DNA from: Dehalococcoidia bacterium
Lineage (GTDB): Bacteria > Chloroflexota > Dehalococcoidia > Plut-88900
NCBI GenBank assembly: GCA_965207225.1
Contig: CBDBLV010000003.1
Location: 154,546-218,545, forward strand
Length of the DNA stretch: 64,000 nt
Direction: 5' to 3'
Each line of letters opens with the position of its first letter. The stretch's first letter is position 1. A program made the position numbers and the translations under genes. A model generated the notes under the pieces. It was not told where the DNA came from, ran no database searches, and was given only the letters and a program-made list of their open reading frames with translations. This document shows positions 16,433 to 47,740 of this stretch, in pieces.

Positions 16433-16669
16433 ATGTCTGTGACGATAACCATAGGGAACGTTCCCGAAGAGGTGCGCGACAAATTGAAGCAGCTTGCCGC
16501 AGAGCAAGGACTGTCTTTGCAGAAGTTCCTGCTGAGAGAGCTTCAGCAAATCGCGTCCCGTACATCCAATGCCGAATGGGTCAGGAACGTGGAAAGAATA
16601 AAGCGAGCCCAAGGCACTAAGATACCGATATCCGCAATCCTAGAAGCGAAGGATGCGGACAAAAGATGA
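16433..16669 (+). CDS. ribbon-helix-helix antitoxin (FitA/VapB-like), no cognate toxin gene
   Basis: MSVTITIGNVPEEVRDKLKQLAAEQGLSLQKFLLRELQQIA is an RHH fold pattern. The C-terminal ILEAKDADKR tail is typical of VapB partners of PIN toxins. Only 71 nt remain before the next gene. Confidence 0.7.
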   Translation: MSVTITIGNVPEEVRDKLKQLAAEQGLSLQKFLLRELQQIASRTSNAEWVRNVERIKRAQGTKIPISAILEAKDADKR

Positions 16670-16740: not shown

Positions 16741-17691
16741 ATGACCAGCAAGCCCCGTATGAAGTTCGGCGTGTCCCTGGGACAGGAGCGCGTTACGTGG
16801 CCCGAGATCGAGGAAGCGGCGCTTCTCGTGGAGGAGCTGGGCTTTGACTCTCTCTGGTCTCACGACCACCTGATACCCTCCGATCCCAGGCGAAACGAGG
16901 GGCCGTGCCTCGAAGCGTGGGCGATTCTCGGGGCGCTTGCGAGGATGACGAAGAGCGTGACCATCGGGCCGATGGTAGCGGGGAACACGTACCGCAACCC
17001 GGTGCTTCTAGCCAAGTCGGCCACTACCGTGGACATCATAAGCGGGGGTCGGCTGATATTCGGGATCGGGGCGGGGTGGTTCGAGATGGAGCACACGGCC
17101 TACGATTTTCCCTTCTATACGGTCGGGGAGAGGATTCGCAGGCTGGACGAGGCCGTCGAGCTCATCAAGAAACTCTGGACCAACGACGGTCCCGTGGACT
17201 TTGCAGGCAAGTACTACAACCTGAGGAGCGCACCCTTCGACCCCCGGCCGATCCAGCAGCCCCATCCCCCTATCCTTATAGCCGGCGGCGGAGAGAAGCG
17301 TACGCTGCGGGTCACGGCAAAGTGGGGGGACATGATGAATATCAACGGCCACGCTCAGATTGCGGCCCATAAATACCGGGTACTGGAAGAACACTGCCAG
17401 GCTGTCGGGAGGGACCCCGCCGAGATAGTTAAGACCGCCAACGGGGCCTTTGTGCCCCCCGAGAAGATGGACGACTGGAACCGCTGGATGGACCATCTCG
17501 CCGAGACCATGCCCGATCAAAGGAAATCACGGGGTGAGGGCGGGGTGGTGGGAGACATGGATGCGATCAGGGACTGGGTGAGGGGTCACGTGGAGGTCGG
17601 CACCCAGCAGGTAATCTTCACCATGCGCTCTCCGTACCCCCTGGAGTCGCTGAGGACATTTGCGAAGAAAGTGATGCCGGAATTCAGATAG
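16741..17691 (+). CDS. LLM-class (luciferase-like) flavin/F420-dependent oxidoreductase, paralogue 1
   Basis: MKFGVSLG..GFDSLWSHDHL..GRLIFGIGAGW..PHPPILIAGGGEKRTL pattern of the bacterial luciferase-like TIM-barrel family. Confidence 0.85.
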   Translation: MTSKPRMKFGVSLGQERVTWPEIEEAALLVEELGFDSLWSHDHLIPSDPRRNEGPCLEAWAILGALARMTKSVTIGPMVAGNTYRNPVLLAKSATTVDIISGGRLIFGIGAGWFEMEHTAYDFPFYTVGERIRRLDEAVELIKKLWTNDGPVDFAGKYYNLRSAPFDPRPIQQPHPPILIAGGGEKRTLRVTAKWGDMMNINGHAQIAAHKYRVLEEHCQAVGRDPAEIVKTANGAFVPPEKMDDWNRWMDHLAETMPDQRKSRGEGGVVGDMDAIRDWVRGHVEVGTQQVIFTMRSPYPLESLRTFAKKVMPEFR

Positions 17692-17701
17692 GAGAAGCGA
17701 C

Positions 17702-18865
17702 ATGGCAGCGCCAAGGGACATTCCCTTCCCCATAGAGGAGTACAGGGCCCGACTCTCGGGCGTCCAGGAGCGGATGCGCTCCCGGGACATTGATCTTCTG
17801 CTGGCGTACACGCCGGAGAACATCAACTACCTGACCGGCTACAACACCACGGGATATTATGTCTACCAGTGCCTGATGGTGCCCGCCGACCGGGACCCGA
17901 TCATGGTGACCCGGGAACTGGAGAAGGATAACGTCACCATGGGCACGTGGCTCGAGGACTACCGCATCTTCGGGGACTCCGAGGACCCAGTGGCAACAAC
18001 CTGCGACGCCATCAAAGAGTTCGGGTATGCGGAGAAGCGGATCGGCTTTGAGTCCACGTCCTGGTTCCTGCAGCTGCGGGACTACCAGCAGACCGTGTCC
18101 CTCCTCCCGGATGCCGAGGTCAAGGATGGCGGCAACATCGTAGAGGAAAGCCGGGTCATCAAGTCGCCTCGGGAAATTGCGTGCATAAGGGAGGCCGCGC
18201 GGATAGTTGCCAAGGGGATGCAATCGGGGATTGACGCTTCGAGGCCGGGGGTCACCGACAACTACGTGGCCGGAGAGCTTACCCGCACCCTCTACGCCGA
18301 GGGCAGCATCTACTTTGCGGGGCAGCCATACGTGGCTTCCGGTAAGCGGACGGGGCGGGGCCACATCACCTTCGCCAACGTCATGCTGGAGCCCGGCGAT
18401 CCCGTGTTTTTCGAGATCTCCGCCAACGTCAACCGGTACAGCGCCTCCCTTATGCGCACCATATCCCTCGGCCCACCCGACGACATGGTGAAGAGCCTCG
18501 CCGAAGCCTCCATCGCAGGCCTTACGGCCGCCGTTGAAAATATGGGCCCAGGCATGACCTCCCATGACGCCGACGCATTCTGCCGTGACGCCATTACCAA
18601 GGCCGGGCACGGAGAGCTCTTCAATCACCGCACTGGCTATTCCATAGGGGTCGGGTATCCGCCGGGGTGGGGCGAGGGTCACATCATGGACATCAAACCC
18701 GGGGACCAACGGGTGCTCAAACCCGGCATGACCTTCCACCTCACACCCGCGATCATTGTCCCCGGGGTAGCCGGGCCCGGTTTCAGCGAGACTATCTTGA
18801 TCACCGATGACGGTGCGGAGGTCCTCACCAGTTTCCCCAGGGAGTTCCTTGTCAAAGAGGTCTAA
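17702..18865 (+). CDS. M24-family hydrolase (creatinase/prolidase-like) with non-canonical metal-ligand positions
   Basis: Creatinase_N-like N-terminal domain (RDIDLLLAYTPENINYLTGY) plus a pita-bread C-terminal domain (IKSPREIACIREAARI ... GMTFHLTPA ... SETILITDDG). Confidence 0.8.
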   Translation: MAAPRDIPFPIEEYRARLSGVQERMRSRDIDLLLAYTPENINYLTGYNTTGYYVYQCLMVPADRDPIMVTRELEKDNVTMGTWLEDYRIFGDSEDPVATTCDAIKEFGYAEKRIGFESTSWFLQLRDYQQTVSLLPDAEVKDGGNIVEESRVIKSPREIACIREAARIVAKGMQSGIDASRPGVTDNYVAGELTRTLYAEGSIYFAGQPYVASGKRTGRGHITFANVMLEPGDPVFFEISANVNRYSASLMRTISLGPPDDMVKSLAEASIAGLTAAVENMGPGMTSHDADAFCRDAITKAGHGELFNHRTGYSIGVGYPPGWGEGHIMDIKPGDQRVLKPGMTFHLTPAIIVPGVAGPGFSETILITDDGAEVLTSFPREFLVKEV

Positions 18866-18895
18866 CCCCATCCCCGATACAGGGACTCCGACACC

Positions 18896-19846
18896 ATGAT
18901 ATCCAATCGACGTATGGAGTTCGGGGGGATGGTCAGCGCGGCAAACGTCTCCTGGCCCGAGTTCCGCAGCATGTGCGAGACAGTCGAGGCCGTGGGCTTC
19001 GACCACCTGTGGGTCGCAGACCTCCTGACTCCCTCGGAAGCTGACTGGTCGGACGGGCTCGTTCACGAATGCTGGAGCCTTTTGTCTGCCGCAGCTTCGT
19101 TTACGGACCGCATCCGCATCGGGCCCCTGGTCGTATCCAACACCTACCGACACCCGGTTGTATCGGCCAAGATCGCCGCCACTGTGGACATCATGAGCGA
19201 GGGCAGGCTGACCTACGGGGTCGGGGCGGGGTGGGCTCAAGAAGAGCACCGTTCCTACGGCATACCCTTCCAGCCCATCGGGGAACGCGTGGCCCGAGTC
19301 GAAGAAGCCATACAGCTGACCAAGCTCCTATGGCAGTCTCCCGACCCCGTAACGTTCCACGGACGCTACTACACCCTGGAAAACGCTCCGTTCAACCCCA
19401 AGCCCGTGCAGAAGCCTCACCCGCCCATCATGATCGCAGGCGGAGGGGAGAAGCTGACCCTCCGCGCCGTGGCCCGACACGCAGATGAGATGAACGTATA
19501 CGGCAGCCCCGAGGAGGTTGCCCACAAGTTCGACGTTCTGCGGAAACACTGTAAGAACGAAGGCCGCGACTTCGATGAAATCAAGAAGACGGTGCTGGTG
19601 CAGATGGTGCCCCCGGAGCGACAGAAAGAATGGGACGAATTCCTGGCGAAAATTGCCGCCGAAGAACCCGAGCCGCTCAATCGGGGCCAGAGCCAGGCTA
19701 TGACCGGAGACGTGGACGACTGGAAGGAGTGGGTGCAGGCAAGGGCTGAGGTGGGCGTCGACCAGGTGATAATCAACCTCTTTGCGCCCTATCTGCATGA
19801 TGCGGTGGAACGCTTTGCTAAAGAGGTGATTCCGACTTTCCAGTAG
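18896..19846 (+). CDS. LLM-class oxidoreductase, paralogue 2
   Basis: Clear paralogue of 16741-17691 (same length, GRLTYGVGAGW, PHPPIMIAGGGEKLTL). Confidence 0.85.
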   Translation: MISNRRMEFGGMVSAANVSWPEFRSMCETVEAVGFDHLWVADLLTPSEADWSDGLVHECWSLLSAAASFTDRIRIGPLVVSNTYRHPVVSAKIAATVDIMSEGRLTYGVGAGWAQEEHRSYGIPFQPIGERVARVEEAIQLTKLLWQSPDPVTFHGRYYTLENAPFNPKPVQKPHPPIMIAGGGEKLTLRAVARHADEMNVYGSPEEVAHKFDVLRKHCKNEGRDFDEIKKTVLVQMVPPERQKEWDEFLAKIAAEEPEPLNRGQSQAMTGDVDDWKEWVQARAEVGVDQVIINLFAPYLHDAVERFAKEVIPTFQ

Positions 19847-19864
19847 AATGGGCTTCCTGCCTAC

Positions 19865-19890
19865 GAGGGCGACCGGCGGGTCGCCCCTAC
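19865..19890. repeat. REP-like hairpin, family 3 (GGGCGACC-N-GG(T/G)CGCCCCTAC)
   Basis: gagggcgaccggcgggtcgcccctac. Related copies at 12421-12451 and 50572-50604, with a degenerate one near 7253. Confidence 0.7.
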
Positions 19891-19921
19891 AAGTCCAGAA
19901 GGGATTCGGAGGAAACGACAC

Positions 19922-20851
19922 ATGACAAAGGTGAAGTTCGGGCCCATCTACACCCGCATCGAAGACCTGATGGGCCCCGTGGAGCTGGCGGAGAAATCCG
20001 AGTCCTGGGGCTACGATTCCTTCTGGGTCCCCGATTACATCCTCAAGCCCCGCCTCGACGCCCTAATCATCCTTGCCGCCGCGGCCCAGCGCACCTCCAC
20101 GATAGAGCTGGGCACCGCCGTCATGGTGCTTCCCTACAAAGACCCCCTTGTCCTCTCCAAGTCGGCGCTTTCGGTGGACGTGCTTTCCAATGGGCGGCTG
20201 TTACTGGGGGTGGGGATCGGGGCCAACCCCCGGGAGTTTGATGTCCTAGGATTGGATATCAAGTACAGAGGTCGGGTCTCCGACGAACGGCTGGACATCA
20301 TGTCCCGCATCCTGAACGGCGAGACTGTAACTCACCACGGCCGCTTCCACTCCTTCGAGGACGTTGCCATAGGCCCGCCGTCAGTGAGCCAGCCCCGGAT
20401 CCCGATATGGCTCGGGGCCCATTGCGGGGGCGGCTGGGCCGAGGGAGCGTTACGGCGCACGGGCCGGTACGGCGACGGGTTCATCCCGACCGAGGCCAGT
20501 ATCGAGCAGTACAAGGACGCCATGGACCGCATCTCCCGCCATGCGGAGGAGGCGGGCCGAGACCCGACCCAGATCGAATGGGGCATCTTCATCTTCATCA
20601 TCATGGAAGACTCCCGTGAGTACGCTGAGCGGAAGGGTTATGCGGAGCTGGCTGACAGGCTGGACCGGGACTACCCGCTGGTGCACGGTCGGGCGGCGGC
20701 TGCGGGGACCGTCGACGAGTGCATAGAGGCTATCCAGGCTTACGTGGACATCGGGGTCACGCACTTCATCCTGGACTCGGCATCCCCAGCAGAGGAGATT
20801 GTCGAGCAGTACGAACGGGCGGCAAAGGAGATAGTGCCCCACTTCCGCTAG
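19922..20851 (+). CDS. LLM-class oxidoreductase, paralogue 3
   Basis: KFGPIY..GYDSFWVPDY..GRLLLGVGIG..IPIWLG pattern. Same subgroup as 23232 and 26067. Confidence 0.85.
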   Translation: MTKVKFGPIYTRIEDLMGPVELAEKSESWGYDSFWVPDYILKPRLDALIILAAAAQRTSTIELGTAVMVLPYKDPLVLSKSALSVDVLSNGRLLLGVGIGANPREFDVLGLDIKYRGRVSDERLDIMSRILNGETVTHHGRFHSFEDVAIGPPSVSQPRIPIWLGAHCGGGWAEGALRRTGRYGDGFIPTEASIEQYKDAMDRISRHAEEAGRDPTQIEWGIFIFIIMEDSREYAERKGYAELADRLDRDYPLVHGRAAAAGTVDECIEAIQAYVDIGVTHFILDSASPAEEIVEQYERAAKEIVPHFR

Positions 20852-20898
20852 GCCTACAGAGGTCGCGCATTGCGGAATTCCCCAGGAGCCTGGGAGGA

Positions 20899-21834
20899 TC
20901 AGGCCGAGGGCTTGATCCCCCTCACCAAAGGCAAAACTTCCTGGGCGAACCGCTCATACTGCTCCATCATCCGTTCAGGCATGATCCCCGCGTTCATCAC
21001 GAAGTGCGTGACCCCAGCATCCACGTACTCCTGGATCCCTTCCGCACAGTCATCCGCCCGACCCGACACGTTCGCCTCCCCACGCACCGCCTTCGTATGA
21101 CTCCTCCGACGGTTCGATTCCGCCTCCAGCGTTTCCCATGCCCTCTCGGCATCGTCGTCCAAGCAGAACCAGAGCACGGTGCCGAACTCGATGGCGTCGG
21201 GGTCCCGTCTCGCGCCCCGGGCGTAAACCTTCACCTTTTCCCGCACCGACTTGTATTCTGATGCGGGGACCAGGGTTGGAACGAAACCATCCGCCATTCT
21301 GCCAGCCCTCACGATTGTTGACTCTACCAACCCGTTCTTCCACAGCGGGCCCGTCCAGATCGGGGGGTGTGGCTTCTGTGCGGTCTCCGGCCCGACATCT
21401 ACTCCGTCGAATTGGTGGTACTTCCCCTTATGAGAGACCTTCTCCCCGGACAGGAGCTTCCGCAACAGCATGAGCTTTTCATCCGCCATCTTCCCGCGTT
21501 CATGGATGTCGAGGCCCAGGGCGTCGAACTCTCTCTTGTTGCTCCCCACCCCCAGCCCCAGGATGAGACGACCGTTGGTCAGTGCATCCACCGTCGCCGC
21601 CGCTTTGGCCAACAGCAGCGGATGCCTGTACGGGAGCACCATCACCGCGGTCCCGAGCAGAATGCGCTGCGTCCTCTGGGAGGCAGCAGCCAGAAGGGGC
21701 AAGGGGTCGGGGGAGTCTCCCAGGGCGAAGTCGGTCGTCCAGAAGGAATCGAAGCCTGAGGCCTCGGCGCGGACGGCCATGTCCACGGCCTCGGTCGGGT
21801 CGTTTATGTGGGAGTGCATTATCCCGAATTTCAT
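20899..21834 (-). CDS. LLM-class oxidoreductase, paralogue 4
   Basis: Start taken at MKFGIMHSH (ATG 21834). GFDSFWTTD, GRLILGLGVG, KPHPPIWTG. Confidence 0.85.
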   Translation of the reverse strand: MKFGIMHSHINDPTEAVDMAVRAEASGFDSFWTTDFALGDSPDPLPLLAAASQRTQRILLGTAVMVLPYRHPLLLAKAAATVDALTNGRLILGLGVGSNKREFDALGLDIHERGKMADEKLMLLRKLLSGEKVSHKGKYHQFDGVDVGPETAQKPHPPIWTGPLWKNGLVESTIVRAGRMADGFVPTLVPASEYKSVREKVKVYARGARRDPDAIEFGTVLWFCLDDDAERAWETLEAESNRRRSHTKAVRGEANVSGRADDCAEGIQEYVDAGVTHFVMNAGIMPERMMEQYERFAQEVLPLVRGIKPSA

Positions 21835-21934
21835 GTCAGCAGTGTCCCGTCCCAAAGAAAGATAAAGGGTTGGCATCGAATGCCAACCCTTTACTTCTTA
21901 TCAGCAAATCTAAGCTATTTTCGGTCCTCTACCC

Positions 21935-23098
21935 CTACAGGTTCGCCACGAATTTTCGTATGCCCTCGACACCCTTCTCCAGGTTCTCCATGCTTGTGGC
22001 GAAGGATATCCGTACGAACCCTTCGCCGTACGCCCCGAAGGAGATGCCCGGGAGCACCGCCACCCCGTTTTCGTAGAGCAGCCGGTCGCCGAACTCCTGC
22101 GCCGAAAGCCCCAGGTCAGACACATTCGGGAACAGGTAGAAGGCGCCCTCGGGCTTGAAGCAGCGAATGCCGTCGATCTCGTTCAGGGCGTCGCAGGTCA
22201 TGTCTCTGCGCCGTCGGAACTCGGCCACCATTGCCTGGGGCTCTTCCTTTGACCCCTCCAGGGCCGCAATCCCCGCCTTCTGCACAAAGGGGGCCGTACA
22301 GGAGACGCTGTTAACCATCAGCTTGGAAATATGGGGCACCAACTCCGAGGGGAACACCCCGTACCCGAGCCTCCAGCCCGTCATGGCATAGGTCTTGGAA
22401 AAACCGTCCAGTATTACGGAGTGTTCCAGCATCCCGGGCAGCTGGGCGATGCTGGTGTGGGTGCTGTCGTAGACGATGTCCCTGTACATCTCGTCGGAGA
22501 GGACCAGGATGTCGTTCTCCCTGGCCATTTCGGCGACGGCCTCCAGGTCCTCCCTGTCCATCATCCCTCCCGTCGGGTTGTGGGGAGAGTTGAGGATGAT
22601 CAGCCGGGTGCGGGAAGTTATAGAGCGCCTCACCTCGTCGAGGTCGGGCTTGAAGCCTTCCTCTTCATACAGCCGCATGGGTACGGGCGTCGCCCCCGAG
22701 AATTTGATCATCGACTCATATATCGGGAACCCGGGGTTCGGGTATATGACCTCGTCGCCCTCTTCGACCAGAGCAGTGAGGAGGAAGTACATAATCGGCT
22801 TGGCGCCGGGAGTGACGATAATAGAGTCGGGGGAAACGTCGATGCCGCGGGTCTCGGATGTGTGTTTCGCCACCGCCGCCCGGACGTCGGGGAGGCCGGC
22901 GGCGGGGCCGTAGTGAGTGAAGCCTCCGTCGAGAGCGTCCTTGGCTGCTCCGATGATGTGGTCCGGCGTATCAAAGTCGGGTTCGCCCAGCTCCAGGTGC
23001 ACGACATCGACACCTGTGGCGGCCAGCGCATTGGCCTTGACCAGGACCTCGAACGCGGTCTCTGTGCCCAGGTTGCTCATTCTCGAGGCCAGTTTCAT
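21935..23098 (-). CDS. pyridoxal-phosphate-dependent aminotransferase, class I/II (aspartate/aromatic type)
   Basis: 387 aa. [22 protein letters not shown] and the [14 protein letters not shown] lysine motif. Confidence 0.9.
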
Positions 23099-23231
23099 TT
23101 TCGGTGCTCCTCCCGGGACGCAATTGCCAGAAATTACAGGCGGTAATTATATCACGGCCACGGTTACATCCATTCGGGCTTTCAGCTAGAATGAACCCCG
23201 ACTCCCTACAGTACCCGAAGAGGTTTGCGCC

Positions 23232-24176
23232 ATGCCCAAAGTCGAATTCGGCCCCCTTTACACCACCATGGAGAAATACATCGGCCCGGTGGAGTTCGCC
23301 GAAAAGGCCGAAGCCTGGGGCTACGACTACTACTGGGTGCCCGACTACGTCACGCTTAGCCCGATGGACGCCTTTGTTCTGCTGTCGGCGGTGGGACAGA
23401 GGACCACGTCCATCAAGTTGGGTACCGCTGTTGTGGTCGTGCCGTTCAGGACGCCCTTCCAGCTGGCGAAGGCCTCGGCGACGGTGGACGTGTTGTCGGG
23501 AGGGCGGTTCACCCTGGGGGTGGGGATTGGGGGGGCCGTGCCCCGAGACTTTGATGTCGCCCAGGTCGACATGCGAAAGCGCGGGCGCATCTCCAACGAG
23601 ACCCTCCACATTACGCGACGCCTCCTCACCGAAGAGAACGTCAGCCACCGCGGCCATTACTATTCATTCGACGACCTTACAATCGAGCCAAGGCCCGTCA
23701 GCGACACTGGCATCCCCATCTGGATCGGCTCAATCTGCAACAATGGCTTCCCCCAGGGCGTCGTGGACCGGGCTGCACGCTATGGCGACGGCTTCTACCC
23801 CACCGACACCCCAATCGAAGAGTTCAAGAAGGTCCAGGAGCGCATCCGGTCCAAGGCGAAGGAGATGGGTCGGGACCCGGACTCCATCCAGTGGGGGCTG
23901 CTGGCCTGGACTTGTGGTGGTGGTTCCAAGGAGGAGGCTCGGCAGACGGCGAGCCGTGAGATAAGCAAGCGGCTGGAGTCGGAGTGGGACGTCCAGGCGG
24001 AGAATGGCTACATCCTGGGCACCCCCGAGGAGATGGCCGAGACCCTGCAGGGCTACGTCGATATCGGGGTCACCAATTTCGTCGTGGACCCGGCCTGTGC
24101 CCCCGAGGACATGCTCGAAATGTTCGAGGTCTTCGCGAAAGAGGTGGTGCCTCACTTCAGGGGCGAAGACAGCTGA
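23232..24176 (+). CDS. LLM-class oxidoreductase, paralogue 5
   Basis: MPKVEFGPLY..GYDYYWVPDYV..GRFTLGVGIG. Its stop overlaps the next start (TGATG at 24174-24178). Confidence 0.85.
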   Translation: MPKVEFGPLYTTMEKYIGPVEFAEKAEAWGYDYYWVPDYVTLSPMDAFVLLSAVGQRTTSIKLGTAVVVVPFRTPFQLAKASATVDVLSGGRFTLGVGIGGAVPRDFDVAQVDMRKRGRISNETLHITRRLLTEENVSHRGHYYSFDDLTIEPRPVSDTGIPIWIGSICNNGFPQGVVDRAARYGDGFYPTDTPIEEFKKVQERIRSKAKEMGRDPDSIQWGLLAWTCGGGSKEEARQTASREISKRLESEWDVQAENGYILGTPEEMAETLQGYVDIGVTNFVVDPACAPEDMLEMFEVFAKEVVPHFRGEDS

Positions 24177-25126
24177 TGAGCGAATTGGGATTCGGGGTCA
24201 CCCTGTTCGACGCGAATGAACGGCCAGTCATCAAGCAGGGTGTCGATGCCGAGGCCTGGAACTACTCCATCTTCTGGGCCCCCGAGTTCCTAGGTATCCC
24301 CACCCTGGAGCCCTTTCCCGTCCTCTCAGCAGTAGCACAGCACACAACCAGCATCAGGCTCGGCACCGGAATAGCGGGGCTGTCCGTCCGCAGCCCCGTC
24401 CAGATGGCCAAGGCCGCCGTCACCACGGACATCCTTTCCAACGGTCGGTTTGTCCTGGGGCTGGGGTTGGGGGGCCTTATTCCCAAAGACCTGGAGGTGG
24501 AGAACGTACCCAGCCTGGGGGAACGAGGCCGCATCTCCAACGAACGGCTCGAAATCCTTTACCGTCTCTTCACAGAGCGCACCATCTCCCATTCCGGCGA
24601 CTACTACAACTTCAAGGACTACACGTTTGGGCCGGGGCCCGTGCAGAAGCCACGCATACCAATCTGGCTCGGGGCACGGTACACGGGCAAGATCGCCGAT
24701 GCCGCCATGAAGCGGGCCGGGACCTACGCCGACGTGTTCATCTTCCCCGCCGATACCCCCACAACCTACTATCCCTACGCCAAGGACAAGGTCCGGGCCT
24801 ACGCGGAGGCGGCGGGTCGGGACCCGGAGGCCATAGGGTTCGCCAGCACGATGTGGACGTGCCTAGGATCAACTCGGGAGCGGGCCATAGATGTGGCGAA
24901 CCGTATAATCCCGGAGATGCTCAGCGTGCCCTGGAAGGTGCCAGACAACGCCTGTTACGGAATGGGTACGCCTGAAGACTGCATCGCGACGGCGGAGGAA
25001 TTCAAAGACCTGGGAGTCTCCCACATCATCATGAACCCCTGCTGTGATTACGAAGAGGTCACAGCTCAGACCGAGCGGTTCGGGCGTGAGGTAGTCCCGC
25101 ACTTCCAGACTAAAGGCGCTAGATGA
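24176..25126 (+). CDS. LLM-class oxidoreductase, paralogue 6
   Basis: Start taken at MSELGFGVTLF (ATG 24176). The 23984 start in the track only adds out-of-family sequence that overlaps paralogue 5. Confidence 0.85.
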   Translation: MSELGFGVTLFDANERPVIKQGVDAEAWNYSIFWAPEFLGIPTLEPFPVLSAVAQHTTSIRLGTGIAGLSVRSPVQMAKAAVTTDILSNGRFVLGLGLGGLIPKDLEVENVPSLGERGRISNERLEILYRLFTERTISHSGDYYNFKDYTFGPGPVQKPRIPIWLGARYTGKIADAAMKRAGTYADVFIFPADTPTTYYPYAKDKVRAYAEAAGRDPEAIGFASTMWTCLGSTRERAIDVANRIIPEMLSVPWKVPDNACYGMGTPEDCIATAEEFKDLGVSHIIMNPCCDYEEVTAQTERFGREVVPHFQTKGAR

Positions 25127-26067
25127 GCCCAATGCAATTCGGCGTAACCCATACGAGGTCCGAGGAACGGACTGCTGTCCAGCAGGGTGTCGATGCCGAG
25201 AATTGGGGGTTCTCCATATTCTGGGCCCCGGAGTTCCTCGCCATCCCCACACTGGAGCCCTTCGCCGTTCTTTCCGCGGTAGCACAGCACACCGCCTCCA
25301 TCAGGTTAGGCACCGGGGTGGCAGGGCTGGCCCTCAGAAGCCCCTTCCAGCTGGCCAAGGCCGCCATCACCACCGACATTCTTTCCAACGGACGGTTGGT
25401 GCTGGGGCTCGGTCTCGGAGGCGTGCATCCCAAGGACCTGGAAGTCGAGGGCATACCGAACCTGCGGGAGCGGGGCCGCATCTCCGACGAACGTCTCGAA
25501 ATCCTCTACCGGCTTTTCACTGAGAAGAACGTCTCCCACTCCGACGAGTACTACCAGTTCGAGGACTTCACCCTCACCCCCGACCCCGTGCAGAAACCCC
25601 ACGTGCCCATCTGGGTCGGGGCACGGTGGTCGGGCAAGATCTTCGACGCCGCCCTGAAGCGCGCCGGGACCTACGCCGATGTCTTCATCTTCCCCGCCGA
25701 CACCCCAACGGACTACTACCCGGGCGCCAAGGAGAAAATCAGCAAGTACGCCGAAGCTGCAGGCCGGGACCCGGGCGATATCCGTTACGCCTCGACTATC
25801 TGGACATGCCTCGCCTCATCGCGGGAAGAAGCAAAGGCCATTGCCAACCGTGAGATTACCCGTTCGCTGCAAGTCCCCTGGGTGGTCCCCGACAACGCCT
25901 GCTACGGGCTCGGCACGCCGGAGGACTGCATAGCCACCGTGGAGGAATTCGCAGACCTCGGCGTATCCCACCTACTCCTGGCGCCCTGCTGTGAACCCGC
26001 AGAAACCACGGCACAGACCGAGCAGTTCGGCCGCGAAGTCGTATCCCATTTCAAAGGTGTTGAGTAA
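25123..26067 (+). CDS. LLM-class oxidoreductase, paralogue 7 (close duplicate of paralogue 6)
   Basis: Roughly three-quarters identical to 24176-25126 by eye (SIFWAPEFL.IPTLEPF.VLSAVAQHT.SIRLGTG). ATGA overlap at 25123-25126. Confidence 0.85.
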   Translation: MSPMQFGVTHTRSEERTAVQQGVDAENWGFSIFWAPEFLAIPTLEPFAVLSAVAQHTASIRLGTGVAGLALRSPFQLAKAAITTDILSNGRLVLGLGLGGVHPKDLEVEGIPNLRERGRISDERLEILYRLFTEKNVSHSDEYYQFEDFTLTPDPVQKPHVPIWVGARWSGKIFDAALKRAGTYADVFIFPADTPTDYYPGAKEKISKYAEAAGRDPGDIRYASTIWTCLASSREEAKAIANREITRSLQVPWVVPDNACYGLGTPEDCIATVEEFADLGVSHLLLAPCCEPAETTAQTEQFGREVVSHFKGVE

Positions 26068-26996
26068 TGAGCAAACTGCAGTTCGGACCCCTCTTTTTCC
26101 CCACCGAAGAAGGCCCCGAGGCCCTGGAACTCGCCAAAATGGCCGACGATCTCGGCTACGACTACTTCTGGGTGCCTGACTACGTGACCCTCCCTTATTT
26201 GGACGCCTTCGTGCTCCTGGCTGCCGCGGCCCGGGAGACCAAGAATGTGAGACTTGGGACAGCGGTGACCCTGGCCCCGTTCCGGTCGCCCTTCCAGATG
26301 TTCAAGGATGCGGCCTCGGTTGACGTGCTTTCGGACGGGAGGCTGACGCTGGGCGTGGGTATCGGCGCAGTGGCCCGAGACTTTGAGATCGCCCAGGTCG
26401 ACTTCCGTAAGCGGGGCCGCATCTCTGACGAGTACATCGACATCACCCGACGTCTTCTCGCCGAGGAGCACGTGGACTACGACGGCGAGTTTTACAGCTT
26501 CCGCGACCTGACCATGGGCCCCAGGCCCGTGCAGAAGCCCGTCCCCATCTGGATTGGCGCGAATGGCCAGAACGGCTTTCCCCCGGGCGTGCTGCGCAGG
26601 GCCGGACGGCTGGGCGACGGCTTTTTCCCCACAGAGACTCCGGTCAAGACCTTCACGGAGGCCCAAGCCAGCATCCAGGAGCACGCCGAGGCCGTGGGTC
26701 GGGACCCCGACGCCATCGGCTGGGGACTGCTCACCTGGAGCGCCCTGGCCGACAACCGGGAAGAGGGGGTCAGGACAGCTGAAAGGGAGATCGGGGCCCG
26801 GCTGAACAAGGTACACACGGTGAACCCGGATGCCGGGTACGCCGTCGGGCGGCCGGAGGACATGATCGAGACCATCGAGTCCTTCGCCGAAATTGGCGTG
26901 ACCAACTTTGTCATAGACCCTGGCTGCCACCCCCGCGACATCCGCACCCTTGTCGAGACCTTCGCCAAAGAGGTCATGCCCCATTTCCGCGACTAG
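26067..26996 (+). CDS. LLM-class oxidoreductase, paralogue 8
   Basis: Same subgroup as paralogue 5 (GYDYFWVPDYVTLPYLDAFVLL, GRLTLGVGIG). TAATG overlap at 26065-26069. Confidence 0.85.
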   Translation: MSKLQFGPLFFPTEEGPEALELAKMADDLGYDYFWVPDYVTLPYLDAFVLLAAAARETKNVRLGTAVTLAPFRSPFQMFKDAASVDVLSDGRLTLGVGIGAVARDFEIAQVDFRKRGRISDEYIDITRRLLAEEHVDYDGEFYSFRDLTMGPRPVQKPVPIWIGANGQNGFPPGVLRRAGRLGDGFFPTETPVKTFTEAQASIQEHAEAVGRDPDAIGWGLLTWSALADNREEGVRTAEREIGARLNKVHTVNPDAGYAVGRPEDMIETIESFAEIGVTNFVIDPGCHPRDIRTLVETFAKEVMPHFRD

Positions 26997-27025
26997 GCCG
27001 ATGATTCGAGCCAAAGGAGACTGAC

Positions 27026-27919
27026 ATGGCCCTGAAAATAGGCATCCACGCTGGTCCGCAGGACTGCTCCTACGAAGACCTGAAACGGCTGTGGCACATG
27101 GCCGACTCCTCGGGGTTTTACTGGGTCTCGGTCTGGGACCACTTCTACGAGACCCCGGTTATCGACGGCAAGGGCCCCTGCTTCGAGGCCGTGTCCATCA
27201 TGACCGCCCTGGCTGCAGAGACCAAGAACGTACGGGTAGGGTGCCTGGTATTCTGCGTCGGGACCCGGAACCCGGGCTTGCTGGCTAAAGCTGCAGTCAC
27301 TATCGACCACGTCAGCAACGGGCGGCTGGAGCTGGGCATCGGGTACGGGCCCTGGGGTCCGGAATACGTTGCCTACGGGCTCGACCTACCCACCATGAAG
27401 ACCCAGATGGACATCCTAGAGGAATCTGCGCAGATCACCCGCTCCATGCTCCACAACGGGACAACCAGTTTCCAAGGTAAGCACTTCCAGATCGAGAACG
27501 CCCACGTATACCCCCGACCCGTCCAGGACCCCCCGAGGCTCTGGATAGCGGGCATAGGTGAAAGGCGCATTCTGCCGATGGTCGCTCGCTACGCCGACGG
27601 CTGGAACGCCACATACATCCCCGACGCCGCCTTCAAGTCCAAGAACGAACTCTTGAACAGGCTTTGCGAAGAAGGGGGTCGGGACCCGGCGGAGATCGCC
27701 CGTACCTGCAACGTCGGCTTCTACATGGGCGCCGACCAGAAGGCCGCTGAGCGAAAGCGTCGGGAGTTCGAGGAGAAGTGGGGTAGGGGGGAGGCGGGAC
27801 CCGACGACGCGAAATACGACAAGGACCGGGACTACCTCTCGGAATTCGAACAGGGGATGATCTTCGGCACTGCCCAGAACGCCATAGAGCGGCTCGGCCC
27901 AAATCCACCGCCTAATTGA
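27026..27919 (+). pseudogene. LLM-class oxidoreductase, paralogue 9, 3' end interrupted by an IS insertion (the reading frame now ends inside the IS left end)
   Basis: LLM pattern (GFYWVSVWDHF, GRLELGIGYG). After codon 290 (27893-27895) the frame runs into the IS inverted repeat and stops at 27917-27919. The missing C-terminus is found at 29790-29898. Confidence 0.8.
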
Positions 27920-29785
27920 ATGAGAATACCTCGTTGGAGTCGGCTGCAAAGCTGACTAAGATGGTAAGTGACAATCCCAAACCATCACCAACGAGGTGCA
28001 GTTATTATGCAACATGGAGTCCTACCGTTCCAGTACAGGGCAGAGAACCGCATCGGGGGCATGACGGCGCTATCGGGGTTGGCAGTCTACCTGGAGATGG
28101 CCGAGGCAATCGGCCTTGGCGAGTCGATCAGACGCCACGTGAGGGTCAGAGAGGGAGGCCAGGGTTGGACGGACCGTCAGATGGTCACCTCACTGACGCT
28201 GTTGAACCTGGCGGGCGGCGAAGGGGTGGACGACCTTCGCGTGCTGGAGGCGGACGAGGGCCTTGGCCGGATGTTGGGAAGGGTGGAGACCCACCGGCAG
28301 CGAGCTTCGGAGCGCAGGGCGGTGCGCAACCGGTGGCGGCGTGACCGACACCGCTATGTGCCGTCTCCATCGGCGGTGTTCCGGTATCTGAGCCAGTTCC
28401 ACGACGCATCCCAGGAGGAGGCGAGGCAGCCTCATACGGCGTTCATACCCCAGGCCAACGACGCGCTGGACGGACTTGGGAAGGTCAACGCCGAGATGGT
28501 GGGCTTTGTCCAGGGCCACGTCGGGCATAGGCAGGCGACACTGGATATGGACGCGACGCTGGTCGAGACTCACAAGCAGGAGGCGCTCTACTGCTACAAG
28601 GGATTCAAAGCCTATCAGCCGCTAACGACATACTGGGCCGAGGCGGACCTGGTCGTCCACTCGGAGTTCAGAGACGGCAACGTTCCTGCGGGATTTGAGC
28701 AGCTACGAGTGTTGCGAGACGCGTTGGAGTGCGTACCCGAGGGAGTGGAGCGGGTGATGCTGCGGTCCGACACGGCAGGCTACCAGAACGATCTTCTGGA
28801 GTACTGCGCCGAGGGGAGAGACGAACGGTTCGGAGTGATCGAGTTCGCGATTGGGGTACGCGTCACGGACGAGTTCAAGCATGAGGCGGCGCTGGTGGAA
28901 GAGAGCGAGTGGCGTCAGTTGCCCCGGATGATGGGGGAGTTCGAGGTGGAGACGGGGCAGGAGTGGGCCGAGGTGGGCTTCATGTCCAGTCGATTAGGTC
29001 GCTACAAGGAGGGTCCCGCCTACCGTTTCATAGCCGTCAGAGAACCTCTGAGGCGACCGCCGCTACCGGGCATGGAGAGTGAGTTTGAGCTGTCGGTTCC
29101 GGTCATGCAGATGCCGAACCACGGCTGGTACAAGATCAGCGGGATAGTGACGAACCGGGAGCTTCCGGGAGACGAGGTTGTGCGGTGGTACCGTGAGAGA
29201 TGCGGGAAAGGCGAGGAGGTCCATAGTGTGCTGAAGGAGGACCTGGCGGGCGGGAGACTGCCGTCGGGACAGTTCGGAGCCAACGCAGCGTGGTGGGCGA
29301 TAACGGTGCTGGCGTTCAACCTGAACTCGGCGGTCAAGCAGTTGGCGCTGGGTGATGAGTGGGTGACCAAGCGGCTCAAGGCGGTGCGCTTCGCTCTGAT
29401 CGACCTTGCCGGTCGAGTGGTCTACCATGCCAGGAAGCTGCTGATCCGACTGGCGCGAGGTCATCCATCGTTCCCGCTGCTGGTCGGGGCACACCGGAGA
29501 ATAGCGGCGCTGGCTCACGGCCCTCCCTGAATCTGAGACGGTCCGCGCCACAGCCTATCGGTCAAGCGACGTGGATAACCGTCGTAGGGACGCTGCGTCC
29601 TCCTACGAGGCCAAACGGCTCAAAATCGACGCAAAACATCGTAAAGCAGCACCCCAAGACCCTCATACGTCCACCATCGGCCCCGCCAAACCACTGCTAA
29701 CCCTGTCAGTAGCCAATCGACGCCCCCACCGGCCCAACCGAAAGGTCAGAAAATCAGATTCCTACCTTTAGGCGGTGGATTTGGG
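27898..29785 (+). mobile_element. IS1380-family insertion sequence (1888 bp)
   Basis: Perfect 18-bp terminal inverted repeats: cccaaatccaccgcctaa at 27898-27915 and ttaggcggtggatttggg at 29768-29785. 4-bp direct target duplication TCGG (27894-27897 and 29786-29789). One transposase ORF. Confidence 0.85.
27968..29530 (+). CDS. IS1380-family DDE transposase
   Basis: N-terminal ..MTALSGLAVYLEMAEAIGL..LLNLAGGEGVDDLRVLEADEGL and TLDMDATLVETHKQEALYCYKGFKAYQPL are typical of IS1380/IS4-related transposases. The true start may be MQHGVLPF at 28007. Confidence 0.75.
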   Translation: MTIPNHHQRGAVIMQHGVLPFQYRAENRIGGMTALSGLAVYLEMAEAIGLGESIRRHVRVREGGQGWTDRQMVTSLTLLNLAGGEGVDDLRVLEADEGLGRMLGRVETHRQRASERRAVRNRWRRDRHRYVPSPSAVFRYLSQFHDASQEEARQPHTAFIPQANDALDGLGKVNAEMVGFVQGHVGHRQATLDMDATLVETHKQEALYCYKGFKAYQPLTTYWAEADLVVHSEFRDGNVPAGFEQLRVLRDALECVPEGVERVMLRSDTAGYQNDLLEYCAEGRDERFGVIEFAIGVRVTDEFKHEAALVEESEWRQLPRMMGEFEVETGQEWAEVGFMSSRLGRYKEGPAYRFIAVREPLRRPPLPGMESEFELSVPVMQMPNHGWYKISGIVTNRELPGDEVVRWYRERCGKGEEVHSVLKEDLAGGRLPSGQFGANAAWWAITVLAFNLNSAVKQLALGDEWVTKRLKAVRFALIDLAGRVVYHARKLLIRLARGHPSFPLLVGAHRRIAALAHGPP

Positions 29786-29898
29786 TCGGGAGCCTGCAGG
29801 AGTCGGGGGCGGACCAGGTCAACATCTCCGTCCGCGCCCCCTTCGACTGGGAGGGGCTGCAGGCTTTTACGGAGGAGGTCATTCCGGCGTTCAAATAG
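29786..29898 (+). pseudogene. displaced 3' fragment of LLM paralogue 9
   Basis: Joining 27897 to 29790 restores ..AIERLGSLQESGADQVNISVRAPFDWEGLQAFTEEVIPAFK-stop, a typical LLM C-terminus. The reconstructed gene is 981 nt. Confidence 0.8.
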
Positions 29899-29926: not shown

Positions 29927-31267
29927 TTACTCCCCCGTCACCCGATCAACAAACTCCTTAGCCAGCCCGAGATACGAGTCCGGGTCCAGCAGGCCGTCTA
30001 TCTCCGCCTCCGATAGGACGCTGGTAACCCTTTCATCCTCCATCAGCAGTTCTTTGAGCCACCGACCTTCCTCGAACGCCTTTTGCGCCGCCTCGTAGAC
30101 CACATCGTGGGCCGTGAACCGGCCCAGGGTTTCTGCCAACCCGATCATCACCGCCTCGGACATTATCAGTCCTCGGCTGTGGTCCAGGTTCCGGCGCATG
30201 GCCTCGGGCTTCACCTGCAGGTTCTCGAATATCCCGATGGACAGGTTGAGTAAGCCCGCGCTCAAGATGCACCCTTCCGATACGAAGTGCCATTCGCTGT
30301 GCCACACTGCCGAGTCCCGCTCGTCCTCATGCTCCAGCCCCTCCAGCGCCGCCCCGGCCAGCGCTCGGATGGTCCGGGCCACGGCGATCACCTGCTCAGA
30401 CCAGGTCGGGTTTCGCTTCTGGGGCATCGTGCTGCTCCCGACCTGCCCCGCCCCGAACTTCTCCTCAAGCTCGCCCATTTCAGTCCGCTGCATCAGCACT
30501 ACTTCGTGGGTCATCTTGGCCAGACTGCCCGCAATCATCGAAAGCACCGTGATGAACTCAACAAGGTTGTCCCGGGCCGAGTGCCACGTAATGACCGGGT
30601 TCCCGAGCCCCAGGTCCTCCATCAGGGCGTCCCGCACCTCCGAGGCCCTGTCACCCAACGACGAGAGCGTTCCAGCTCCTCCGCTGAACTGCCCTACCAA
30701 AAGCCTGGGCTCGCACTGCTCCATCCGCTCGATGTGTCGGCCCATCTCCGCCGCCCACACCGCCACCTTGTAACCGAAGGTGATCGGCAATGCCTGCTGC
30801 CCATGCGTCCTACCCGCCATCAGAGTCCCCCGGTGCTCCTTTGCCAGGTCGATGAGCGTCTGGTGCACTCGCCGCAGGTCCCGGGTCAGGATCGACAGGG
30901 CCTGCCTCAGCTGCAGCACCATCCCCGTGTCCATGATGTCCTGCGTCGTCGCGCCCCAGTGGATGTACTCCCCCGAGTCCCCCGGACAGTGCCGTTCCAG
31001 CTCCTCGATGACCGGTACGATCGGGTGCCGGGTCACGTCCATGTCCCGCTTGATCGCTTCGATGCTCATTTCGTCGGCGTTGCAGTGGACGACTATGGCA
31101 TCGGCGGCTTCCTGTGGGACTACGCCCAGGCGACCTTCGACTCGGGCCAGGGCTGCTTCCACATCGAGCCAGCTCTGCAGCTGGTTCCGCTCCTCGAAAA
31201 CGGCCCGCATCTCGTCGGTGCCGAACAGGTCCTTGAAAAACGCCGAGTCCAGGGGTGTCGATCCCAT
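29927..31267 (-). CDS. fumarate-lyase superfamily enzyme (adenylosuccinate lyase / 3-carboxy-cis,cis-muconate cycloisomerase-like)
   Basis: Start at MGSTPLDSAFF (ATG 31267). Contains the superfamily signature GSSTMPQKRNP. Confidence 0.85.
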   Translation of the reverse strand: MGSTPLDSAFFKDLFGTDEMRAVFEERNQLQSWLDVEAALARVEGRLGVVPQEAADAIVVHCNADEMSIEAIKRDMDVTRHPIVPVIEELERHCPGDSGEYIHWGATTQDIMDTGMVLQLRQALSILTRDLRRVHQTLIDLAKEHRGTLMAGRTHGQQALPITFGYKVAVWAAEMGRHIERMEQCEPRLLVGQFSGGAGTLSSLGDRASEVRDALMEDLGLGNPVITWHSARDNLVEFITVLSMIAGSLAKMTHEVVLMQRTEMGELEEKFGAGQVGSSTMPQKRNPTWSEQVIAVARTIRALAGAALEGLEHEDERDSAVWHSEWHFVSEGCILSAGLLNLSIGIFENLQVKPEAMRRNLDHSRGLIMSEAVMIGLAETLGRFTAHDVVYEAAQKAFEEGRWLKELLMEDERVTSVLSEAEIDGLLDPDSYLGLAKEFVDRVTGE

Positions 31268-31444
31268 GTGTGATGTTCCTTTCGGGAGTTGAAGATACTC
31301 GCGACAAACAAGCCTAATGCTCGCTGTCGGGTATGGCAACAAATCATAATTCTTTTCCATTTGCCTAAACGCCAAGTGATCAACCCTGCATTCTAGTCAT
31401 GTATAATGATGTATCCCAAATGGGGACCTAATGCATAGGGGTGT

Positions 31445-31711
31445 GTGATGGCGAAGACTGCAATGGTTCGTGCGCGGGTAGAGCCGGAATTGAAGCGCCA
31501 GGCCGAAGAACTATTTTCGGAGCTTGGACTATCAGCAACGGAGGCAATTACGCTCTTCTACAAGCAGGTCGCAATACATCGCGGCTTACCTTTCTCTGTG
31601 CGAATTCCCAATAAAAAGACCATGGAGGCCATGAGACAAGCTGAGAATCGAGAAGACCTCCTCGAATATTCCAGTATCGAAGACTTCAGGGAAGACCTCG
31701 AGCGCGCATAA
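31445..31711 (+). CDS. dinJ: type II antitoxin, RelB/DinJ family
   Basis: VRARVEPELKRQAEELFSELGLSATEAITLFYKQVAIHRGLPF is a DinJ-type RHH antitoxin. The toxin gene is directly adjacent. Confidence 0.85.
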   Translation: MMAKTAMVRARVEPELKRQAEELFSELGLSATEAITLFYKQVAIHRGLPFSVRIPNKKTMEAMRQAENREDLLEYSSIEDFREDLERA

Positions 31712-38438: not shown

Positions 38439-38497
38439 CGGTGCCTGTGCGGATTCCGTAAACGGAACCCATCGGGCACAACATCGTGTCAAACCGT

Positions 38498-38542: not shown

Positions 38543-38695
38543 TTGATCACCTCCTTTCTTGATGTACTTCCAATATAAGGCCATTGTGGTGAATCGCGCA
38601 ATACCGGACTTGCACAAGCCGATGTGTATTGCTGAATGGGTGGGGCGGGTCTATCATGTCGAGCAAAATTTTTCGAGCCGGGGAAGGGGCGCAAC

Positions 38696-46467: not shown

Positions 46468-46671
46468 ATGCCTATAGTGAGAGTCGAGATGCTGCCCGGC
46501 AGGAGCGAAGCGCAGAAGTCCGACCTCGTGAAGGCCATGACCGACGCCATGGTCAACATCGCCGGCACCCCCTCGGCTGAGTCCGTCCACGTCATCATCA
46601 CCGAGACCGCGGGCGAAAACTGGGCCATGGGCGGCGAGATGCTGGCCGAGAGGATGAAGGCCCGGTCCTAG
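46468..46671 (+). CDS. 4-oxalocrotonate tautomerase family enzyme
   Basis: 67 aa starting MPIVRVEM (catalytic Pro1), with a beta-alpha-beta pattern. Confidence 0.85.
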   Translation: MPIVRVEMLPGRSEAQKSDLVKAMTDAMVNIAGTPSAESVHVIITETAGENWAMGGEMLAERMKARS

Positions 46672-46765: not shown

Positions 46766-47740
46766 ATGGCTGACATGAGCAGGTTCAGCGCGTACATTTA
46801 CGGTTGGGGCGCGACACCCCCGACCCTCGACTCCCTGACCGACGTGGTTCAGCAGCTCGACCGGCTGGGGTTCTACTCCGCCGGGTTCCCGTACCACATG
46901 ACCCTGCCCCACGCCCCCATGTTCGACCGCTTCAGCAGCCACCACCTCTTCGACCCCCTCGCCCTGCTCCCGGCCCTGTTCGCAGTCACGAAGAATCTGC
47001 GACTCGGCATTCACTCCCTCATCCTGCCCGTGCTCCCGCCCTACTTCTGGGCCAAGAACCTTTCGACCATCGACGTGATCTCGGGAGGTCGGCTGATACC
47101 TGGGATGTGCATGGGCTGGTCGCCCGGCGACTTCCACATGGCCGGGGCGGATGAGCACCACCGGCGCAGGGCCCGGGTCACCGACGAGCAGATGGAGCTG
47201 ATCACCCGGCTCTGGACCGAGGACGGCGTGACGCACAACGGCCGGTACTACCAGCTCGAAAACGTCACCCTTGACCCGAAGCCCGCCCAGAAACCCTACC
47301 CGCCCATCTGGTACGGCGGCGGCCTGCCCTCCATACCCAGGGCGGCGAAGTACGCCACCCACATCCTGCCCGCTCCCATGCCCGTCGAAGAGATCAGGGA
47401 GCAGTGGGTCCCGGCAATCGAGGCCGAGAACGAGCGGACGGGCGCATCCCTTAAGATCAGCCTGATGAACTTCGTCGCCATAGTAGACGACGAAAGCAAG
47501 GTGGAGACCGAGATCGTCCCCCAGCTGCGGCAGTGCATACGCCTGACGGCGTCGGGGGTGCAGCCGGAGGACATGACCATCGTCGGCTCCCCGGAATCGT
47601 GTGCAGAGAGGGTCAGGGTGTTCCTCGACGCGGGCGTGGACCACCTACTCCTGGACTTCAGCTACCGGGGCTCGGCCTCCCGGGAGCACCAGCGCGAACA
47701 GATACAGCGCTTCGCCGAAGAGGTAGCGCCCCTGGTTTAG
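46766..47740 (+). CDS. LLM-class oxidoreductase, paralogue 10
   Basis: GFYSAGFPYHM, GRLIPGMCMGW and KPYPPIWYGG. More divergent than paralogues 1-9. Confidence 0.8.
   Translation: MADMSRFSAYIYGWGATPPTLDSLTDVVQQLDRLGFYSAGFPYHMTLPHAPMFDRFSSHHLFDPLALLPALFAVTKNLRLGIHSLILPVLPPYFWAKNLSTIDVISGGRLIPGMCMGWSPGDFHMAGADEHHRRRARVTDEQMELITRLWTEDGVTHNGRYYQLENVTLDPKPAQKPYPPIWYGGGLPSIPRAAKYATHILPAPMPVEEIREQWVPAIEAENERTGASLKISLMNFVAIVDDESKVETEIVPQLRQCIRLTASGVQPEDMTIVGSPESCAERVRVFLDAGVDHLLLDFSYRGSASREHQREQIQRFAEEVAPLV

Follow-up and report, generated by a model that had tools for sequence, protein, structure and literature searches.

A 64,000-nt stretch of a Dehalococcoidia genome, referred to as the window (C3:154546-218545 of a 4.03-Mb assembly in five contigs; other contigs are designated likewise within C2-C5), was analyzed for its ten luciferase-like (LLM) open reading frames, LLM1 to LLM10. 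Coordinates without a contig prefix are window positions. Nine of these genes, LLM1 to LLM9, form an array. The analysis indicates that this array is probably old and vertically inherited, and that most or all of its members are probably hydride transferases dependent on the deazaflavin F420, with substrates that would differ from paralogue to paralogue. An earlier sequence-only reading had framed the genes as flavin-dependent monooxygenases. That framing is probably wrong for the array, since 6 of the 10 proteins pass F420-family cut-offs, the F420 pathway is complete together with the NADPH:F420 reductase Fno, and cofE co-occurs with such LLM genes.

Family membership and cofactor

All ten paralogues were confirmed at the positions where the sequence-only reading had placed them. 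Each matches Pfam PF00296 Bac_luciferase with 137-199 bits (E 1e-40 to 1e-59; gathering score 27.9). The proposal of at least three sequence subgroups was also borne out by pairwise identities, which range from 21 to 72% and give groups A, B, and C. In group A, LLM1 and LLM2 are 45% identical, and LLM9 is about 30% identical to both. Group B contains LLM3, LLM4, LLM5, and LLM8 at 36-55%, plus the pair LLM6/LLM7 with a mutual identity of 72%. Group C is LLM10 alone, with less than 30% identity to all nine others.

Curated hidden Markov model (HMM) cut-offs of F420-type LLM subfamilies were passed by LLM1 and LLM2 for TIGR03560 and by LLM2, LLM3, LLM4, LLM5, and LLM8 for TIGR03619 (170-198 bits versus a cut-off of 166.9). 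LLM9 stays below the TIGR03560 cut-off (212 versus 231 bits) because it is truncated. LLM6, LLM7, and LLM9 are nested in clades that also contain genes above the F420 cut-offs. Throughout the genome, TIGR03619 is passed by 25 genes and TIGR03560 by 4. Among 14 control genomes, only Haloferax volcanii gave matches, over the cut-off for TIGR03560 and below it for TIGR03619; neither model matched anything in the E. coli and B. subtilis controls, both of which carry FMN-type (flavin mononucleotide) LLM genes. Clustering of the paralogues with one characterized enzyme type, named by the sequence-only reading as a refuting outcome, was not seen, as no paralogue reaches the equivalog cut-off of Mer, Fgd, fHMAD, SsuD, SfnG, RutA, LuxA, or NtaA/DmoA (40-120 versus 276-600 bits). 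For the FMN families, which include SsuD, SfnG, RutA, LuxA, NtaA/DmoA, and MupA, all ten proteins score far below the cut-offs.

The presence of F420 biosynthesis genes elsewhere in the genome, a point raised with the sequence-only reading, was verified for cofC, cofD, cofE, cofG, and cofH. The scores, with cut-offs in brackets, are 139.5 (105) bits for CofC, 330 (257) for CofD, 270 (181) for CofE, 458 (213) for CofG, and 527 (374) for CofH. Fno was identified by the npdG model with 206 bits (150), and its gene lies beside cofE. Two FDOR-A genes were also found in the genome. Co-occurrence was profiled in 60 genomes sampled across the class Dehalococcoidia, with TIGR03619 as the only LLM model covered. 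Both cofE and a TIGR03619-passing LLM gene were present in 24 genomes, cofE only in 1, the LLM gene only in 4, and neither in 31 (Fisher p = 1.3e-11). All four LLM-only genomes are less than 90% complete.

F420 is an obligate two-electron hydride carrier that does not activate O2, which is established biochemistry (PMC8498797). Because of this property, the F420 subfamily matches, the F420 pathway, and the cofE co-occurrence, oxygen insertion by at least nine of the ten LLM proteins appears unlikely. In the proposed mechanism, most or all nine array members would use F420 and not FMN. The cofactor would be made by CofC, CofD, CofE, CofG, and CofH and reduced with NADPH through Fno. The nine proteins would then act as O2-independent hydride transferases, which reduce C=O, C=N, or activated C=C bonds or catalyze the reverse dehydrogenations. 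Each paralogue would act on its own member of a group of small organic compounds, or at its own step in their conversion.

The original SAR202 model gives such genes a different role. They are described there as FMN-dependent two-component monooxygenases (type II Baeyer-Villiger/alkanal-monooxygenase-like "FMNOs") that oxygenate recalcitrant alicyclic compounds, as proposed in the SAR202 papers (PMC5395668, PMC6946804). For the array, this explanation is judged unlikely. The family does contain such enzymes, FMN enzymes match fold and sequence equally well, LLM10 and about 37 longer LLM genes elsewhere are not clearly of the F420 type, and one Flavin_Reduct gene is present in the genome. However, none of the ten proteins reaches any FMN-family cut-off while six pass those for F420, the F420 pathway is complete with a class-wide co-occurrence of cofE and TIGR03619-type genes, and a scan of about 9.8-57.5 kb of the window revealed no flavin reductase.

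The single Flavin_Reduct (PF01613) gene of the whole genome is located at C4:615627-616034, about 5 kb from an LLM pair at C4:621098 and C4:622417. Since one member of this pair belongs to the long FMN-like clade, the pair and the reductase are a candidate for a true two-component monooxygenase. In a tree of 98 LLM proteins of the genome, about 61 fall into two F420-like clades, and 29 genes pass the strict F420 cut-offs. Judged by clade representatives, about 31 genes belong to the TIGR03619 clade, about 30 have F420-like best matches that are mostly below the cut-off, and about 37 longer genes are ambiguous or FMN-like.

Several observations weigh against F420-dependent hydride transfer as the function of the array. 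F420 use is assigned from HMM membership, phylogeny, and co-occurrence, and is probable to that extent. LLM6 (140 bits), LLM7 (151), and LLM10 (138) lie below the TIGR03619 cut-off. LLM8, the only paralogue modelled, folds into a TIM barrel in AlphaFold2 (AF2; mean predicted local distance difference test score, pLDDT, 89.5), and its top Foldseek match is Mer with F420 (8qpl; template modelling score, TM, 0.82). However, TM values of 0.75-0.85 were obtained alike for Mer, MsuD, SfnG, and 2i7g, so F420 and FMN enzymes score equally. Comparison of LLM1, LLM5, and LLM10 with solved structures gave distant matches (E about 1e-20) in which F420 and FMN enzymes are mixed. The best solved relatives of LLM10 are the FMN enzymes SfnG and MsuD, and its cofactor is ambiguous. 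LLM1 retains the His of the "DH" motif of Fgd and Adf, but Ser and Trp replace the catalytic Trp and Glu; because these two residues are missing, LLM1 represents no known dehydrogenase type. To our knowledge, Rv1855c and Rv2161c, the namesakes of the two TIGR families, have no demonstrated substrate. No simple signature-residue test that separates F420 from FMN enzymes was found in the accessible portions of the literature. The sequence-only reading had stated that sequence inspection could not decide between FMN and F420. This holds for LLM10, while the HMM matches, the pathway, and the co-occurrence favor F420 for most of the array.

Conservation, selection, and recent disruption

The nine array genes lie within 11 kb, and LLM10 is 19 kb away. 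When 99 genes were placed at random 5,000 times, at most 6 starts fell within 11.2 kb and at most 8 within 31 kb, versus 9 and 10 in the window. The clustering exceeds chance even in a genome this rich in LLM genes, and the array is the densest LLM cluster of the genome.

About 99 LLM genes were counted in the genome, both by the Pfam scan and by a purpose-built HMM. A search with the M24 hydrolase protein of the array identified eight Dehalococcoidia metagenome-assembled genomes (MAGs) of 2.9-3.7 Mb, in which the M24 protein is 87-99% identical, and these were used as relatives. At least 95 LLM matches were found in each of the eight, versus 3-4 in two distant Dehalococcoidia. Placement of the host in the class Dehalococcoidia is well supported. 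Its 16S gene (C4:510748-512300) contains the target of the SAR202-104R probe with one mismatch (probe sequence from PMC6306507), and SAR202 membership is likely. The suggestion of a SAR202-type Chloroflexota expansion agrees with this placement and with the copy number, which is of the same scale as the reported COG2141/"FMNO" expansion. The 16S gene appears to exceed the length expected from E. coli numbering by about 55-60 nt. The surplus falls between the 27F and SAR202-104R sites, which are about 177 nt apart versus about 96 expected.

The order and orientation of the nine-gene array are identical in all eight species-level relatives, and nucleotide synteny extends from about 14960 to exactly 27897. 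The ratio of nonsynonymous to synonymous substitution rates (dN/dS) against the eight orthologous arrays is 0.02-0.18 for the LLM genes (0.04-0.10 for LLM1), 0.01-0.03 for the aminotransferase gene, and 0.01-0.18 over the LLM, M24, and aminotransferase genes together, at dS values of 0.15 to more than 1. Each array copy is under strong purifying selection.

In the FastTree phylogeny of the 98 LLM proteins, LLM3 to LLM8 fall into one well-supported clade of eight members. The other two members are unlinked to the array, and one of them, C5:1072971, is 67% identical to LLM4. LLM1 and LLM2 are sisters. LLM9 belongs to the same seven-member clade as these two and is itself the sister of C2:46705 (55% identity), and LLM10 is placed elsewhere in the tree. 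The grouping of LLM3-LLM8 and that of LLM1, LLM2, and LLM9 therefore suggest that old local duplications built the array within two subfamilies, a TIGR03560-like one (LLM1, LLM2, LLM9) and a TIGR03619-like one (LLM3-LLM8). The array would then have been inherited vertically, with each copy retained by purifying selection.

The same data bear on whether the paralogues lack distinct functions, being either largely redundant or decaying remnants of duplication or a product of misassembly. LLM9 is disrupted here, LLM7 is split in one metagenome contig, and the contamination estimate of the MAG is 8.3%. This explanation is nevertheless very improbable, and conservation and selection have largely refuted it, as all nine genes are intact and syntenic in eight relatives at low dN/dS, and the disruption of LLM9 is recent and private to this genome. 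The paralogues are also not collapsed repeats, because they are only 21-72% identical.

LLM9 had been read as split by an insertion sequence (IS), and this was verified by joining the flanks, which restores a 326-aa frame of the same length as the intact orthologues in the relatives. The inserted element belongs to the IS1380 family. Its transposase is encoded at 27968-29530, its 18-bp terminal inverted repeats (CCCAAATCCACCGCCTAA) are perfect, and the 4-bp target duplication TCGG is present at 27894-27897 and 29786-29789. Members of the IS1380 family are presumably 1.5-2 kb long with a 4-5-bp target duplication, as catalogued in ISfinder, and the LLM9 insert fits this description. Eight copies that are 100% identical were found in the genome. 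The insertion in LLM9 is absent from all eight relatives, and LLM9 is intact without it in two further contigs from the same ENA sample. Because of this absence, the knock-out of LLM9 is recognized as private to the genome, very recent, and polymorphic. The IS1380-family element is active and has just inactivated LLM9.

Two of the eight copies lie head to tail, 5 bp apart (C5:461718-463605 and C5:463611-465498). In one same-sample contig (L031, ENA ERZ25069412), the LLM7 orthologue at positions 1058-2001 consists of two open reading frames of 177 and 154 aa. The cause is either a frameshift allele or an error of long-read sequencing at a coverage of about 9x; LLM9 is intact in that contig.

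Gene layout and neighboring functions

The features of the array and its surroundings are collected in Table 1. The start of LLM4 was corrected from 21876 to 21834, the conserved start, which is the same in all eight relatives.

Table 1. Features of the LLM array and adjacent genes, in window coordinates (scores in bits).
Feature	Coordinates	Strand	Evidence and remarks
LLM1, 316 aa, group A	16741..17691	+	PF00296 163; TIGR03560 257 (cut-off 231)
M24 hydrolase with Creatinase_N, DoeA-like (ectoine hydrolase)	17702..18865	+	PF00557, PF01321
LLM2, 316 aa, group A	18896..19846	+	TIGR03560 248 (cut-off 231); TIGR03619 170 (cut-off 167)
LLM3, 309 aa, group B, TIGR03619-type	19922..20851	+	TIGR03619 188 (cut-off 167)
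LLM4, 311 aa, group B, start MKFGIMHSH	20899..21834	-	TIGR03619 189
Intrinsic terminator hairpin, 13-bp stem then T-rich tail	21864..21892	-	3' of aminotransferase gene
Class I/II pyridoxal phosphate (PLP) aminotransferase, Asp-aminotransferase-like	21935..23098	-	PF00155 247
LLM5, 314 aa, group B, head of tightly packed LLM5-LLM9 run	23232..24176	+	TIGR03619 174 (cut-off 167)
LLM6, 316 aa, group B	24176..25126	+	PF00296 148; TIGR03619 140, below cut-off
LLM7, 314 aa, 72% identical to LLM6	25123..26067	+	TIGR03619 151, below cut-off
LLM8, 309 aa, group B	26067..26996	+	TIGR03619 198; AF2 model
LLM9 5' part, group A, IS-interrupted	27026..27897	+	TIGR03560 212 (cut-off 231)
IS1380-family element, 1,888 bp	27898..29785	+	NF033539 227 (cut-off 180); PF13701
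LLM9 3' remnant	29786..29898	+	First 4 nt are the target-site duplicate; aligns to 3' end of the intact orthologue in relative L010
Fumarate-lyase superfamily, adenylosuccinate-lyase-like	29927..31375	-	PF00206 Lyase_1, PF10397 ADSL_C; convergent on array
4-oxalocrotonate-tautomerase-like reading frame, 67 aa, Pro-1	46468..46671	+	Sequence inspection, MPIVRVEMLPGR...; just upstream of LLM10
LLM10, 324 aa, group C	46766..47740	+	PF00296 138; TIGR03619 138 (cut-off 167)

Stop/start overlaps of 1-4 nt are present at the LLM5/LLM6, LLM6/LLM7, and LLM7/LLM8 junctions; the LLM5 stop and the LLM6 start share 1 nt, and the LLM7 start and LLM6 stop overlap as ATGA. The terminator hairpin beyond the aminotransferase stop is also found in relatives L006, L008, L009, L010, and L012, where stem changes preserve pairing. 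A promoter-like site lies before LLM5 (23163-23192). Overall counts in the promoter/terminator scan were at chance level, and only the conserved hairpin was retained from it. The layout suggests at least three transcription units. The first would be LLM1-M24-LLM2-LLM3, the second the aminotransferase gene, closed by a terminator of its own, and then LLM4, and the third the translationally coupled run LLM5-LLM6-LLM7-LLM8-LLM9. LLM6 and LLM7, which are translationally coupled and 72% identical, might form a LuxAB-like heterodimer. An Rfam scan found no riboswitch upstream of the array.

Directly upstream of LLM1, in the divergent intergenic region, a 78-aa open reading frame (MSVTITIGNVPEEVRDKLKQLAAEQGLSLQKF...) is located at 16433-16669 (+). 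It looks like a ribbon-helix-helix antitoxin of the VapB/FitA type or a small regulator. No toxin partner was seen, and several relatives show no conservation of the segment.

The sequence-only reading had described a range of genes as interleaved with or near the LLM genes, in a ring-cleavage-type context. The named families are present, but only the M24 hydrolase and the aminotransferase genes are truly among the LLM genes. The M24 hydrolase scores 333 bits against NF038259 DoeA_2, below the cut-off of 575, and the aminotransferase is below the cut-off of every NCBIfam equivalog. Near the array, Pfam matches were obtained for RidA, VOC, a Rieske protein, three MFS transporters, BtpA, a family III CoA-transferase, Amidohydro_2 proteins, and an enolase-superfamily gene that is followed by a 2-oxoacid dehydrogenase operon. 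The adenylosuccinate-lyase-like (ADSL-like) protein passes the purB model TIGR00928 (369 bits, cut-off 326) and is below the cut-offs for pcaB (317 versus 356) and XcbD-like proteins (499 versus 600); its adjacency to the array is retained in L006. The ring-cleavage context was overstated, as it consists of generic family matches. A ring-cleavage pathway was rejected, since the lyase passes purB and not pcaB, and the VOC and Rieske matches are generic and lie outside the conserved array.

Taken together, the co-inherited M24 hydrolase, the aminotransferase, the ADSL-like lyase, and RidA give a weak hint at nitrogen-containing substrates. What weakens the nitrogen link is that the M24 homologues of other phyla (L014-L029) have no neighbor genes in common with the window. 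A wider interpretation is offered as tentative, and its chances appear limited. In this Dehalococcoidia lineage, and perhaps across SAR202, most of the "FMNO monooxygenase" expansion might consist of O2-independent, F420H2-dependent hydride transferases supplied by Fno, with the array as one co-regulated reductive pathway for nitrogen compounds. These compounds may be host-derived, and the DoeA-like hydrolase and the aminotransferase may cooperate in their conversion.

The same neighbors could also belong to a biosynthetic cluster for a secondary metabolite derived from an amino acid and tailored by F420H2-dependent LLM reductases. Such a role would resemble that of the LmbY-type reductases of actinomycetes. 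The aminotransferase, the M24 hydrolase, and MFS exporters are close by, and F420-type LLM enzymes do work in antibiotic biosynthesis (PMC8498797). However, no polyketide synthase (PKS), nonribosomal peptide synthetase (NRPS), precursor of a ribosomally synthesized and post-translationally modified peptide (RiPP), or other core gene was found in the scanned 9.8-57.5 kb. A single pathway with nine paralogous reductases would have no precedent, and about 99 such genes are scattered through the genome amid catabolic-type genes. A biosynthetic cluster is therefore considered improbable.

Further features were observed in the surrounding sequence. Between the ADSL-like lyase and RidA genes, at 31445-31978 (+), lies a type II toxin-antitoxin pair that consists of an 88-aa RelB/DinJ antitoxin (PF04221) and an 88-aa YafQ toxin (PF15738, 111 bits). 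A full-length Rfam match to Ms_IGR-5, an actinobacterial small RNA (sRNA), was found at 38372-38565 (-) with 55 bits versus a gathering score of 45; it lies between the BtpA and CoA-transferase genes and is unexpected for Chloroflexota. A 604-aa erythromycin-esterase-family protein (PF05139) is encoded amid catabolic genes at 41325-43139 (-). Beside an Amidohydro_2 gene, the 375-aa open reading frame at 47984-49111 (+) has no Pfam or NCBIfam match.

Comparison with known systems

TIGR03560 (Rv1855c) and TIGR03619 (Rv2161c) were reportedly defined by Selengut and Haft in 2010 by phylogenetic profiling in Actinobacteria. The LLM genes of the window resemble these families in that 6 of the 10 are above the cut-offs and in their co-occurrence with F420 biosynthesis genes. 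They differ from the actinobacterial cases in their Chloroflexota host and in the presence of 25 TIGR03619 members in one 4-Mb genome. We know of no member of either family with a defined substrate.

The TIM-barrel fold, as seen in the LLM8 model, is shared with Mer (8qpl, 1z69), Adf (1rhc), Fgd1 (3b4y, 5lxe), and fHMAD (9fp4). Alignments of LLM1 with fHMAD, Adf, and Fgd have E values of 1e-16 to 1e-20, and the active-site His is common to all of them. Unlike a true member of these enzyme types, however, the LLM proteins show an identity of only 20-26% and fall far below the cut-offs of the equivalog HMMs.

In the picrate pathway of Rhodococcus and Nocardioides, NpdC and NpdI are F420 hydride transferases of the LLM family, and NpdG is the NADPH:F420 reductase. 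By analogy with this catabolic pathway, the array may likewise contain several F420-dependent LLM hydride transferases that are fed by a reductase of the NpdG/Fno type. In contrast to the picrate pathway, fno is beside cofE on another contig, outside the array; nine paralogues are present versus two; and nitroaromatic genes are not present here.

The deep ocean and sponges harbor SAR202-type Chloroflexota in abundance, and the LLM expansion of these bacteria underlies a widely cited hypothesis on the oxidation of recalcitrant dissolved organic matter (DOM). The COG2141/"FMNO" expansion in SAR202 was described by Landry et al. (2017, PMC5395668) and Saw et al. (2020, PMC6946804), with sponge SAR202 treated by Bayer et al. 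(2018, PMC6306507). Saw et al. report as many as 114 copies per genome and as much as 4% of genes, and they already placed many SAR202 copies in an "F420-dependent" branch. The present genome resembles these cases in family, class, scale (about 99 copies versus up to 114), and deeply diverged paralogues. Family III CoA-transferases, the enolase superfamily, Rieske oxygenases, and MFS transporters are the companions in both. Where these papers describe oxygen-inserting monooxygenases, in contrast, the array members here are assigned to F420 subfamilies and are accompanied by an F420 pathway and Fno. In the open literature, no paper was found that ties SAR202 to F420H2, deazaflavin, cofE, fbiC, or F420 biosynthesis genes, and the accessible text of the three SAR202 papers (PMC5395668, PMC6946804, PMC6306507) does not mention a nine-gene array with fixed synteny.

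If a large share of the expansion is F420-dependent, the predicted chemistry would shift from O2-dependent oxygen insertion to reversible hydride transfer, and the oxygen-insertion model of the SAR202 attack on recalcitrant organic matter would need revision. Useful experiments would shift likewise to F420-based assays and F420-making expression hosts. For the cofactor question, the nine-gene array offers a test set that is compact, can be cloned, and has all of its copies under selection. Compared with the earlier work, the LLM expansion as a genomic phenomenon is already known; the IS-disrupted allele, the class-wide cofE co-occurrence, the selection analysis, and the genome-wide family split are new from this window.

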